Source: Intestinirhabdus alba
GTDB taxonomy: Bacteria; Pseudomonadota; Gammaproteobacteria; Enterobacterales; Enterobacteriaceae
NCBI RefSeq assembly: GCF_009711095.1
Contig: NZ_WMJZ01000019.1
Span: 36,899 to 100,898, forward strand
DNA length: 64,000 nucleotides
Direction: 5' to 3'
The stretch's first letter is position 1, and the number at the start of each line of letters is the position of its first letter. Shown piece by piece: positions 35,431-39,745 of the stretch. The notes beneath the pieces were generated by a model that did not search any database, was not told the origin of the DNA, and was given only the letters and a program-made list of their open reading frames with translations. Made by a program: the position numbers and the translations under genes.

Positions 35431-36243
35431 TCAGATGTAGGACGGGCGATCGTTTTTCGGCTCTGCGCCGAGGGTCGCCAGCACGGTTTTGCCAATTTCC
35501 CTCGCTGACGTTACCGCCTGACGCACCGCGCCGGAGTCGCCAGAGATAATCAGGATGGCTTCGTTGCTGAAGCTGGTGCCGCTCGCCGGGGAGCTGTAGG
35601 CCACCACCTCAACGTTGGCGGATTTCAGGGCGGTATCGGCCATCAGCACGCCGACCGCGGCCGGCGCGCCGACGATCACCCCGCAGGCCCGGCCAACGGG
35701 CGCGCCAAAGGCTTTTTCCAGCGCATAGCTGGCGCGGGCGGTGTACTGCAGCTCGATGTGCCCGGCCTCGTTGGCGTAGACGTCGCCGAAGGTGCGGTCC
35801 AGCTCTTTCAGCGCCACTTCGATGCCGCGCTTAACGTCGGAAACGTCGTTGCCGCCTAAAATAATCAGCGAGCCGTGGCCGGCACCGCCCTTGGTGTCGC
35901 GGGGAAGCTCAATGCTCACCACTTCGGTGTTGGTCGCTTTTACCGCTTCGTCTGCGGCCATAATGTGCGGGCCTGCCCCGGTACGCGCGCCAAGAATGCC
36001 GATAGAGCGATAGCGTTTTTCCAGCTTCATCGCGTCCAGTAAGGCGCTGTCCACGTTGGCGATAACCAGACCGACGGTGTCGCCGATGGCGGTGCCAACA
36101 AATTCCGTTAAACTGCAGCTCTTTTCTGCCATAGCCGTCTCTCGTTGTGGGTGGGGGGTATCAGGGAGTGCCGACGGTTCCGGCGTCGACACGCGCGCGA
36201 TTACCTGCGCCATGATCTGATCCACCAGTTCATTGCTGCTCAT
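35431..36243 (-). CDS. pduB: BMC shell protein PduB (tandem permuted BMC domains)
   Basis: 270 aa. An internal in-frame ATG at 36132 ([13 protein letters not shown]) would give the shorter PduB' isoform. Confidence 0.92.
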
Positions 36244-36524
36244 TGGTCAATTCCCTTGGGTAAGATTTTTTCTACATCGGTATGCGGGCGCGGAATGACG
36301 TGTACGGCTTTCACGTCGCCCACGTGGCGCGCGGCGGCCGCGCCGGCGTCCGTCGCCGCTTTTACCGCGCCTACGTCGCCGCGGACGATTACCGTCACCA
36401 GCCCGGAGCCAATTTTTTCGTAGCCGACCAGCATCACATTGGCCGACTTCACCATTGCGTCTGCGGCCTCTATGGCCGCAGTCAAGCCTTTGGTTTCTAC
36501 CATTCCTAATGCTTCTTGTTGCAT
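36240..36524 (-). CDS. pduA: BMC-H shell protein
   Basis: 94 aa. First gene of the pdu operon. Confidence 0.93.
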
Positions 36525-37046
36525 ACAGACCTCGCCTGGGTTTATCCGATAGTCCCGACTATAAAAAGAAGCGAGGAAAAAGAATGGCTGAGTTAAAAAT
36601 GAGGTGAAAAAAATAGTGGGGATTGAATGCGATAAAATTGTTTTTTGTTATTATATCTCGCTGTTTTTAAAGACTAATTTTTTAGTTATCGATGTGATAA
36701 TTTAGCTATTGCCACTCCATATTTACACTTTTAGGGGTGACAAAAAATATTTCATTTGTTATATGGGCGGCGCAAATGTGACGCTGCCTGAAAAACAGAA
36801 ATCTCGCCTGAGCAATATTTTATTATTTTAAAAAGTGGCTTGTAATAGCCAGAATACCTGTTGCAGAGCGCTCGCGAAATAATGGCAGAGCAAGAATTTG
36901 CTATTGCAGCACGATTTTGCGAAGCCGGCGCTTTGCAGATTGCCAACAATTTTCTGGCGGCAGTTTTTATAGTGGCGTTCGTTGTACTCTACCGCCAGCA
37001 GGGAATTCGCTGGTAAGACACGAACTCTTCTAATTAAGGTGTCACC
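36525..37046. promoter_or_regulatory. divergent pduA / pduF control region
   Basis: 522-bp AT-rich non-coding spacer between divergent pduA and pduF. Contains a TATAGT -10-like element near 36959 and the duplicated block 36809-36926 (see findings). Confidence 0.6.
36809..36926 (+). promoter_or_regulatory. pduF-side copy of the duplicated pdu/cob control block (candidate PocR-dependent promoter element)
   Basis: Shares two sub-motifs with 39294-39403, with identical 74-nt spacing: TGAGCAATATTTTrtTATT and TGGCAGAGCAAkAATTTGyTAT...CGAAGCC. Confidence 0.45.
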
Positions 37047-37856
37047 ATGAATGATTCACTAAAAGCGCAGTGCGTTGCCGAGTTTCTGGGCACCGGGCTG
37101 TTTCTGTTCTTTGGTATCGGCTGTCTGAGCGCGCTCAAGGTGGCGGGAGCCAGTCTTGGACTATGGGAAATCTGTATTATCTGGGGGCTGGGGATCTCGC
37201 TGGCGGTGTACCTGACTTCCGGTATCTCCGGCGCGCACCTTAACCCGGCGGTCACCATCGCCCTGTGGCTGTTTGCCTGCTTTCCCGGGCGCAAGGTCGT
37301 TCCTTATGCCGTCGCGCAGGTCGCCGGGGCGTTCGGCGGCGCGGCGCTGGGATACCTGCTGTACAGCAGCCTGTTTATCGAGTTTGAGACGACGAACTCA
37401 ATGGTGCGCGGCAGCGTTGAGAGCCTGCAGCTGGCCAGTATCTTCAGCACCTATCCGGCTGCGGCGCTGAGCGTCTGGAAGGCGGCGCTGGTCGAGATGG
37501 TGATTACCTCCATCCTGATGGGGCTGATTATGGCGCTGACCGACGACGGCAACGGCGTGCCGAAAGGGCCGCTGGCACCGCTGCTGATCGGCCTGCTGGT
37601 GGCGGTGATCGGTGCCTCCACCGGTCCGCTGACCGGATTCGCCATGAACCCGGCGCGCGACTTTGGTCCGAAAATGTTCACCTGGCTGGCGGGGTGGGGA
37701 GATATCGCCATGACCGGCGGTCGCGACATCCCCTATTTTGTCGTGCCAATTATTGCGCCGATCGTCGGGGCCTGCATCGGGGCGGCAATCTACCGCTTCT
37801 GCATCGGTAAAAATTTACCCTGTAACAGCTGTAAGGCCACAGAAACGGATGCGTGA
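37047..37856 (+). CDS. pduF: propanediol diffusion facilitator (MIP/aquaglyceroporin family)
   Basis: 269 aa with two NPA boxes (HLNPAVT, AMNPARD) and 6 TM helices. Confidence 0.9.
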   Translation: MNDSLKAQCVAEFLGTGLFLFFGIGCLSALKVAGASLGLWEICIIWGLGISLAVYLTSGISGAHLNPAVTIALWLFACFPGRKVVPYAVAQVAGAFGGAALGYLLYSSLFIEFETTNSMVRGSVESLQLASIFSTYPAAALSVWKAALVEMVITSILMGLIMALTDDGNGVPKGPLAPLLIGLLVAVIGASTGPLTGFAMNPARDFGPKMFTWLAGWGDIAMTGGRDIPYFVVPIIAPIVGACIGAAIYRFCIGKNLPCNSCKATETDA

Positions 37857-37925
37857 TCGCACGGCGTGTCGGCAATATCACACTCTCTGATTTTAATTCG
37901 TGATCTGCCGTCATGAACCGAAGAA

Positions 37926-37962
37926 AAGGTCTCCCCAGGGGGGGAGACTTTTGTTATTGTCT
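37926..37962 (+). terminator. rho-independent terminator after pduF
   Basis: Hairpin ggtctcccc-aggg-ggggagact followed by TTTTGTTATTGTCTTTT. Confidence 0.7.
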
Positions 37963-38381
37963 TTTATACCCTTCATACTTCAAGTTGCATGGGTGTTGGC
38001 TGCACTCGCTCACCCCAGTCACATAGTTATCTATGCTGCTGGGGATTCGTTCCCTTGCCGCCTACAAGCAACTCGAATTATTTTGGGTATATATCCGCCG
38101 GGTTTCGGGCCGCACGGGCGCTGGCTAAAGGAGATATCCAGCTTCTCTTCCGGCCTCTTTCCTGCAGGCCAGTCGGGGCGCGTTTCATGGATGAGACGAG
38201 TAACCAGAAGCCAACGCACACGCAGCCTGAAGTATAACGGGTATAAAACGTGTTGCGTTTGATCATGCCGCCCCAATTAGCCGGGGTATATACTTACCGT
38301 TCGCCGGTAAACAGGCATGGTGGGAAATATGTGAAGAAGTTGTATTTAATTATAACAATGGATTAACTGAGGGATTTTATC

Positions 38382-39293
38382 ATGATTTCTGCGAGCACCC
38401 TGAACTCAGAACTCATTAATAAAATCGCACAGGATTTTGCGCAAGCCACCAGCCTGGCGGTTGTGGTTGTCAATATTCATGGTGATGAAATTTCCGAATT
38501 ATTTAATTTCACCCCGTTTTGCCAGCTGATGCGCCAGCATCCTCAGCTCAGCAGCCGCTGCCGTATGAGCGATCGCTGCGGCGGGCTGGAGGCGTCAAAA
38601 TCAGATGGGCCGTGTATCTACCGCTGTCACGCCGGGCTGACCGACTTCTCTATTCCGCTGGTTATTGCCGGCCATCTGGTGGGCTTTGTGCTGTGCGGCC
38701 AGGTGCGGCTCTCCAATGACGTCGGGCTGGTTGATATTCTGAACGTCGACGACCGCTGGCAGTCCGATCCGCAGCTGTTAAACGAGTTCCGTAACGTGCC
38801 GGAAATGGACTACTCGCGGGTGATGGCCTCGGCGGATCTGCTGAAGCTGATCGTCGAGAACTGCCTGAAAAAGCAGCTTAACTTCGTGGTGATTAAAGAC
38901 ACGCCGCAGCAGGCGGAGCCGGCGCGTGCGAGTCGCGGCGTCAATCCCCATGACAGCAAAATGAAGAAGGCGCTGCGCTATATTGACGCCCACCTTTCGG
39001 ACGATCTGCGTCTGGAGGACGTCGCCTCCCACGTCTATCTCAGCCCCTACTACTTCAGCAAGCTGTTTAAAAAATATCAGGGTATTGGCTTTAACGCCTG
39101 GGTTAACCGGCAGCGCATGGCCAGCGCCCGCGAGCTGCTGTGTCACAGCGACTGGAGCATCGCCAGCATTGCGCGTAATTTAGGCTTTTCCCAGACCAGC
39201 TATTTTTGCAAAGTTTTTCGCCAGACCTATCAGGTGACGCCGCAGGCTTATCGACAGCAAAATAGTAATAACGCCTCCGCTGAAACGGCGTAA
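38382..39293 (+). CDS. pocR: AraC-family transcriptional activator of the pdu/cob regulon
   Basis: 303 aa with a C-terminal AraC HTH (..LEDVASHVYLSPYYFSKLFKKYQGIGFNAWVNRQRMASARELL). Position between pduF and cbiA. Confidence 0.9.
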   Translation: MISASTLNSELINKIAQDFAQATSLAVVVVNIHGDEISELFNFTPFCQLMRQHPQLSSRCRMSDRCGGLEASKSDGPCIYRCHAGLTDFSIPLVIAGHLVGFVLCGQVRLSNDVGLVDILNVDDRWQSDPQLLNEFRNVPEMDYSRVMASADLLKLIVENCLKKQLNFVVIKDTPQQAEPARASRGVNPHDSKMKKALRYIDAHLSDDLRLEDVASHVYLSPYYFSKLFKKYQGIGFNAWVNRQRMASARELLCHSDWSIASIARNLGFSQTSYFCKVFRQTYQVTPQAYRQQNSNNASAETA

Positions 39294-39403
39294 TGAGCAA
39301 TATTTTGCTATTGGCTTGCGGCTCGGACGATACCTGTATCCGAAGGCATACGGGAAGAAATAAGCCCTGGCAGAGCAATAATTTGTTATCGTACAACGAA
39401 GCC
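39294..39403 (+). promoter_or_regulatory. cob-leader copy of the duplicated pdu/cob control block (candidate PocR-dependent Pcob element)
   Basis: Same two sub-motifs and spacing as 36809-36926. Lies about 160 nt upstream of the riboswitch and overlaps the pocR stop codon. Confidence 0.45.
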
Positions 39404-39564
39404 GTGTTATTTACATAGAAAAGTGCGCCGGTTTTTATTTTTGTGATGAGATACAGTGTCAACACAAATTGATTTCATTATTCTTTGGCAACTGCTTCAA
39501 ATGGAACGAGCCGGTTTGAAGTGAAAGACGGAATAATAAATCCGCGTCGCGGATAAATATTGCC

Positions 39565-39745
39565 GCGAATGTTGCCGACAGGTTTGCCACGAATGTGGCA
39601 GGGAAGGGGGTGAGAATCCCCCGCAGCCCCCGCTGCTGTGATGCTGACGACCCCGTAAATACCACTGATCGCAAGATTGGGAAGGGCGGGTGAGGATGAC
39701 GCTAAGCCAGAAGACCGGCCTGTCGGTTATAACCAACAACTTCGG
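39565..39745 (+). promoter_or_regulatory. cobalamin (AdoCbl) riboswitch in the cbi leader
   Basis: Core GGGAAGGGGGTGAGAATCCCCCGCAGCCCCCGCTGCTGTGA, ACCACTG, and B12 box GCTAAGCCAGAAGACCGGCC, about 90 nt upstream of the cbiA ATG. Confidence 0.8.

Follow-up and report, generated by a model that had tools for sequence, protein, structure and literature searches.

Paired predicted PocR boxes with a common spacing in the pduF and cob control regions of Intestinirhabdus alba

We studied two short, co-oriented blocks of similar sequence in the pdu-cob region of Intestinirhabdus alba, within a stretch of 64,000 nucleotides that is called the window throughout. The coordinates of the genes, boxes and promoters are collected in Table 1. 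The genes pduA and pduB are on the minus strand, and a divergent intergenic region of 522 bp separates pduA from pduF, whose product is a propanediol facilitator of the MIP family (Pfam PF00230). The next gene, pocR, encodes the AraC-family activator that responds to 1,2-propanediol, and on the cob side the order is pocR, a leader with a cobalamin riboswitch, and then cbiA; pduF and pocR are both among the listed open reading frames. The PocR product of the window presented the Pfam domain PF10114 (PocR) plus HTH_AraC/HTH_18, and was 92-94% identical to the PocR of Citrobacter, whose species are the nearest named relatives. It is the presumed binder of the four boxes described below.

Table 1 Features of the pduA-cob leader region (positions within the window)
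Feature	Positions	Strand	Sequence	Remarks
pduA	36240-36524	-
F1, distal predicted PocR-box core, pduF side	36809-36826	+	TGAGCAATATTTTATTAT	weight matrix 19.9 bits
Spacer element, pduF side	36836-36861	+	TGGCTTG-N11-ATACCTGT	partner at 39312-39337, cob side
F2, proximal predicted PocR box, pduF side	36887-36918	+	core AGAGCAAGAATTTGCTAT, 36887-36904	weight matrix 23.8 bits
Predicted PocR-dependent pduF core promoter	36936-36973	+	CAGaTTGCCAACAATTTT, 36936-36953; -10-like TATAGT, 36968-36973
pduF	37047-37856	+		propanediol facilitator
pocR	38382-39293	+		1,2-propanediol-responsive activator
C1, PocR box I of the cob promoter	39294-39311	+	TGAGCAATATTTTGCTAT	weight matrix 23.1 bits
C2, PocR box II of the cob promoter	39372-39417	+	core AGAGCAATAATTTGTTAT, 39372-39389	weight matrix 26.8 bits
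Pcob core promoter region	39420-39462	+	…GTGCGCCGGTTTTTATTTTTGTGATGAGATACAGTGTCAA	highly conserved
Cobalamin riboswitch, cob leader, 3' of the second block	39563-39737	+		Rfam RF00174, 108.7 bits

An earlier note on this DNA had described the blocks, at 36809-36926 and 39294-39403, as a duplicated regulatory segment of about 110 bp with two conserved sub-elements. Inspection of the sequence showed both blocks at these coordinates and in the same orientation. The first sub-element reads TGAGCAATATTTTATTATT (36809-36827) in one block and TGAGCAATATTTTGCTATT (39294-39312) in the other, identical at 17 of 19 positions, and the second reads TGGCAGAGCAAGAATTTGCTAT (36883-36904) and TGGCAGAGCAATAATTTGTTAT (39368-39389), identical at 20 of 22. 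The distance of 74 nt from the start of one sub-element to the start of the next was the same in the two blocks, and CGAAGCC was present in both (36920-36926 and 39397-39403), all as the note had it. The sub-elements are thus present, but they are not separate entities: a repeat search recognized both as copies of a single motif, in a family of four copies at 36810, 36888, 39295 and 39373, with intervals of 78, 2407 and 78 nt. At its full length the motif is an 18-nt near-palindrome whose copies start at 36809, 36887, 39294 and 39372, i.e., 78 nt from box start to box start in both blocks. Its form in the window is GAGCAA...TTGyTAT, and its consensus across related loci, also a near-palindrome, is ATAGCAA-N4-TTGCTAT. 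Two details were corrected: the shared internal ATACCTGT (36854-36861 and 39330-39337) is offset by 9 nt and not by 8, and the T-rich, -10-like TTTTTATAGT, given as near 36955, is positioned at 36964-36973. The sequence GTTTTTATTTTTGTG, given as near 39430, was indeed located at 39431-39445.

The motif is rare in the window. Allowing up to two mismatches, GAGCAANNNTTTGYTAT had five matches in 64 kb where 0.57 were expected, and none of 100 shuffled sequences reached five. With an 18-nt weight matrix, scores of at least 9 bits were obtained at the four sites only in the whole 64-kb window, and all four scored higher on the plus strand. All four boxes start with GAGCAA; in most genera the start is TAGCAA, TGGCAA or TAACAA, and the frequency of G at that position across the loci is 0.19. 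This common start could reflect co-evolution with the PocR of the lineage or concerted evolution of the sites.

We then compared the window with 79 related loci, gathered through PocR, in Enterobacteriaceae and beyond, as far as Aeromonas. Motif matches of at least 12 bits numbered 282, and 263 of them (93%) fell within the two control regions, whose share of the sequence is 12.6%; this count is partly circular because the weight matrix was seeded from the motif of the earlier note and built on the scored loci. The phylogenetic footprint obtained from alignments is independent of the motif and therefore free of that circularity. In 42-45 distinct Enterobacteriaceae sequences it showed conservation of the boxes, of the 3' extension of box II and of the core promoters, but not of the spacers of about 60 nt. 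On the pduF side the conserved islands (45 distinct intergenic sequences) were both cores, CACGATTTT, the TTGCCAACAATTT element and the TATAGT hexamer. Alignment with sequences from Salmonella, Klebsiella and Citrobacter likewise showed boxes conserved across genera. The distance between paired boxes was 77-79 nt on the pduF side (38 loci) and 75-78 nt on the cob side (43 loci). This spacing was kept also in Yersinia, Serratia, Hafnia, Mangrovibacter and an Aeromonas, where the cob-side pair is found at different distances from pocR. A distance that is kept while the sequence in between varies speaks for a geometric constraint on the two PocR units when bound.

The cob-side block corresponds to a promoter that is already described. 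In Salmonella, the PocR boxes of Pcob are a box I of 20 bp, a gap of 52 bp and a box II of 48 bp, followed by 9 bp to the -35 (work of 1996, as summarized in PMC11264322). According to the same summary both boxes are protected by purified PocR (Rondon & Escalante-Semerena 1996), and either deletion of box I or replacement of box II abolishes the response to PocR (PMC11264322). The supplement of that study gives one primer that removes box I and another with which the promoter fragment stops at the 'theoretical' start site. Both primers matched the locus of Salmonella diarizonae (L019), with 0 and 1 mismatches, and the 20/52/48/9 geometry fitted this locus exactly: box I is the motif core right after the pocR stop codon, and box II, placed by the published geometry anchored on the primers, starts a few bases before the second motif core. 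The reverse complement of the start-site primer matched positions 39442-39462 of the window with 3 mismatches, which would place the start of Pcob transcription near 39462 and the centres of the box cores near -81 and -159.

In the window, C1 directly abuts the stop codon of pocR (39294 is the first base after it), and by alignment it is orthologous to the site that begins one base after the stop in Salmonella, Citrobacter and Klebsiella. C2 continues beyond its core, toward the -35, as the equivalent of the remainder of the ~48-bp footprint. Alignments with 15 and then with 41 other sequences showed that both cob boxes and the core promoter are orthologous, the link to the Salmonella boxes being made with S. 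arizonae, S. diarizonae and 40 others, and the pair occupies the interval from the pocR stop to the cob leader, in which the B12 riboswitch lies. The block thus resembles Pcob of Salmonella Typhimurium in having two boxes directly after pocR, in its alignability and in its agreement with the primers. It differs in the distance between cores, 78 nt instead of 76 (a spacer longer by 2 nt), and in leaving the family consensus at three places: immediately behind box I, within the 3' portion of box II and close to the -35. The sequences of the window at these places are TTGGCTTGCGGCTCGGACG (39312-39329), CGTACAACGAAGCCGT (39390-39405, in the extension of box II) and AGAAAAGTGCGCCGG (39420-39432), as compared with the TTGCCGATTTTTGATAT, AGCGCAACAAAATAAT and GATAAACTGCACCAG that are near-invariant in other Enterobacteriaceae. 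Pcob may accordingly vary in strength or regulation in this lineage, to judge from these substitutions. A scan of the window for sigma-70 consensus promoters made no call at the inferred Pcob core. Since the cob-side block matches the published Pcob boxes, the cob half of the finding is known biology.

On the pduF side, F1 is at -238 and F2 at -160 relative to the pduF ATG. The site orthologous to F1 was found at -235 to -241 from this ATG in most Enterobacteriaceae loci with the same synteny; that of F2 was at -157 to -163 in Enterobacteriaceae and further upstream in some other genera. The 3' extension of F2 is conserved and ends in CACGATTTT (36910-36918). The two parts of the predicted core promoter, CAGaTTGCCAACAATTTT and TATAGT, were near-invariant in the alignments across genera. 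The sigma-70 consensus scan made no call at the pduF core promoter, as would be expected of an activator-dependent promoter. If TATAGT is the -10, transcription of pduF would start near 36980 and the cores would be centred near -84 and -162, a layout that would be essentially that of Pcob.

According to the literature, PocR has target promoters in front of both pduA and pduF, and a PocR-activated promoter upstream of pduF was named P1 by Chen et al. 1995 (as cited in PMC10433801). In published electrophoretic mobility shift assays, MBP-PocR shifted a fragment of 656 bp (-618 to +38 relative to the pduA ATG) and left a pocR-proximal fragment unshifted; the shifted DNA spans the whole pduA-pduF intergenic region, so that the evidence has the resolution of a fragment and refers to the orthologous region of Salmonella. 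The pduF-side block, a co-oriented pair of PocR-box sequences upstream of pduF, lies where this PocR-dependent promoter is reported and is probably P1, with PocR expected to occupy F1 and F2. A point of difference is that the 2024 study (PMC11264322) proposed for Ppdu not a Pcob-like pair but 'potential' boxes 215 bp apart, and found one box-II-like Ppdu sequence non-functional in a roadblock assay. The sequences of the Ppdu boxes are printed neither in that paper nor in its supplement; the non-functional sequence could be F2. It may also be speculated that box I of the 215-bp pair is F2 on the other strand and that its box II lies near 36624-36671. We found no description of a two-box, Pcob-spaced layout at pduF in the later open literature, and a search of the literature for PocR sites mapped at pduF or pduA, or for a role of IHF, returned nothing usable.

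Taken as upstream activating regions of two PocR-dependent promoters, Pcob and the pduF-pocR promoter, the two blocks are well accounted for, and we consider this reading likely. The PocR-regulon promoter architecture suggested in the earlier note agrees with the coincidence of the cob boxes with the published ones and with a conserved pduF-side pair that has the same motif and the same spacing. The note had, however, gone further and read the blocks not as isolated binding sites but as a promoter module that had been duplicated, and here the results pointed the other way, the likeness being limited to binding sites at a fixed distance. The similarity did not run through the spacers as in a segmental duplication: by local alignment, spacer likeness within a genome was not significant in 17 of 20 genomes, and p was 0.066 in the window. 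In addition, variants of the boxes are specific to each side and conserved across genera, with GCAATAAATTGTCATAGCGCAACAAAATAAT in cob box II and GGCAAgAATTTGyTAT…CACGATTTTT in pduF box II. Unconserved spacers together with side-specific boxes indicate that the similarity comes from sites at a fixed distance and not from shared descent of a 110-bp segment.

That the blocks are nevertheless true paralogues, either by duplication of the ~110-bp promoter module or by a recent gene conversion of one copy, seems improbable, though the window offers some grounds for it. Its spacers share TGGCTTG (36836-36842 and 39312-39318) on the same diagonal as ATACCTGT, and two exact runs (7 + 8 nt) on one diagonal did not occur in any of 20,000 shuffles, a statistic chosen post hoc. 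The identity of box II between sides, 27 of 39 positions, is at the top of the range of 17-27 seen in 25 genomes; the four boxes have the GAGCAA start in common (see above), and the cob-side spacer departs from a family consensus that is otherwise conserved. TGGCTTG-N11-ATACCTGT is not conserved in other genera, however, and this extra likeness between sides appears from the comparison to be specific to the lineage. The 11 nt between the shared runs match at 1 of 11 positions, a degree of mismatch that a conversion tract would not leave, and each shared word has recognizable orthologous precursors on its own side; for ATACCTGT these are the GATATCCTGT of Citrobacter sp. Awk4 (cob side) and the AATACCCG of Pseudocitrobacter (pduF side). 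Together these make a simple conversion tract unlikely.

The motif could also belong to a protein other than PocR, such as ArcA, CRP, Fis or IHF, but we give this very little credence. The pdu/cob regulon is under Crp and ArcA control and requires IHF; moreover, the centre of the motif is AT-rich and some copies contain TGTTA-like words. Against this, the cob cores are inside regions that, in the published summary of Pcob, are protected by PocR and are both required for the PocR response. The motif was found beside pocR-linked promoters only (79 loci) and nowhere else in the 64 kb, whereas the site of a global regulator would be commoner. ArcA boxes are direct repeats, unlike the inverted repeat described here, and a search with the IHF consensus gave no site in either block or in the spacers of the window. 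As for the last alternative, which the earlier note itself had raised, a small dispersed repeat (REP, ERIC or MITE-like) or a chance likeness unrelated to regulation has next to no probability in spite of an ERIC copy in the same region (see below), since the four copies of the motif in 64 kb are all inside the two promoter regions, they keep their places with respect to the pduF ATG and the pocR stop in different genera, the matches in the 79 loci are concentrated in the control regions instead of being dispersed, and the shuffle tests rule out chance.

With the blocks read as PocR operators, the following mode of action can be proposed. Each block would contain two boxes built on one 18-nt core, 76-78 nt from start to start, centred near -80 to -85 and near -160 with respect to the transcription start, and the promoter-proximal box would reach with its conserved 3' extension toward a poor -35. 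PocR with bound 1,2-propanediol would occupy both boxes and then recruit or activate RNA polymerase at the weak core promoter. Contacts between the two bound PocR units, made across bent DNA, would keep them in a fixed arrangement, and we infer that this cooperative geometry is the reason for the fixed spacing. Note that 76-78 bp correspond to ~7.3-7.4 helical turns, a non-integral number, so simple looping with both units on the same face of the helix is not obviously favoured.

Several sites of ~18 bp, some of them far upstream of the -35, are also used by MelR at melAB of E. coli and by AraC in O2/I1 looping at araBAD, and these systems depend on a fixed geometry between sites. PocR is likewise a member of the AraC family with several sites in a fixed geometry, but its cores are near-palindromic and ~76-78 bp apart, and the spacer holds no recognizable site for a co-regulator. 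Operators typical of the family consist of direct repeats placed side by side, which abut the -35 or overlap it. The cores found here did not follow this classical AraC/XylS layout, being inverted-repeat-like and 76-78 nt apart, and the extension of box II is the only part of the PocR boxes that approaches the -35. A general rule, in which PocR promoters from Aeromonas to Enterobacteriaceae have a rigid two-operator geometry of 18-nt near-palindromes 76-78 bp apart, with F1/F2 perhaps serving pduA too, is a tentative proposal that we would not yet favour. If true, it would mean that PocR and DNA form a higher-order complex, wrapped or bent, that differs from the adjacent-repeat operators typical of the AraC family, and that the layout is used at least twice per regulon.

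The pduA side was inspected for a third site. In the window, no strong site for the pduA promoter was found, none in this part reaching 3 bits with the weight matrix, but in other genera strong minus-strand sites (20-27 bits) were centred 109-176 nt from the pduA ATG. These were seen in Kosakonia, Phytobacter, Entomohabitans, Yersinia, Hafnia, Acerihabitans and Sodalis (loci L040, L041, L049, L055, L058, L066, L069 and L070), at 109-127 nt from the ATG or, in Yersinia and Hafnia, at ~162 nt; Kosakonia, Phytobacter and Entomohabitans had an additional site at ~175 nt. A second match 65-66 nt away was present in L040, L049, L055 and L069, weak (~10-11 bits) except in L040. The window, Salmonella and Citrobacter lack the pduA-proximal sites or have them in degenerate form; in the window a conserved AAAATTG half-site (36634-36640) is their sole remnant. 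The region of this half-site, together with F2 on the other strand, could be the pair of Ppdu boxes 215 bp apart of PMC11264322, and in Salmonella, Citrobacter and this organism the F2/F1 pair may be shared by the two divergent promoters, that of pduA and that of pduF.

The same intergenic region contains a promoter-like sequence directed toward pduF, TTTACA-18-AATATT (36722-36751), with a conserved CRP-like half-site, TGTGAT (36693-36698), ~60 nt upstream of its expected start. Judged by these motifs, the two could constitute the globally controlled 'P2', in which case the F1/F2 boxes would lie inside its leader.

The type of element and the cob-side pair are already known, and no new kind of system is described here. 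The additions are incremental: the pduF-side pair with the spacing of Pcob, the 18-nt core, and the conservation of the spacing across orders. No mention of a near-palindromic 18-nt core shared by the Pcob boxes was found in the later open literature. The pdu/cob regulon matters for gut colonization by Salmonella and its relatives, and PocR is under development as a biosensor for 1,2-propanediol; the engineering study of 2024 states that the interaction of PocR with its promoters "remains unclear" (PMC11264322). An operator model with one 18-nt core, a pair spacing of 76-78 nt and a second pair at the pduF promoter could guide promoter minimization and footprinting.

Some neighbouring elements were also observed. 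The pduF leader has two conserved hairpins, at 36994-37014 and 37017-37043. In the GCCAGC/GCTGGT hairpin, pairing is kept across genera through a few compensatory changes, and in the GACAC/GTGTC hairpin the 3' arm overlaps the Shine-Dalgarno sequence AAGG, suggesting a possible translational control of pduF. The intergenic region between pduF and pocR (37857-38381) has 525 bp in the window and ~205 bp in related loci. The extra DNA includes an ERIC-type repeat (37963-38094), with the terminator hairpin of pduF on one side and the pocR-proximal promoter on the other, and an inverted 40-nt copy of the left end of ERIC at 38209-38248; the repeat is found at a median of 10 places in each of 5,426 E. 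coli genomes. Finally, an Rfam match to the enterobacterial small RNA STnc230 was obtained on the minus strand at 37916-37999 (53.2 bits, gathering score 50), antisense and just 3' of pduF, where it overlaps the terminator hairpin (37925-37952) and the start of the ERIC copy.
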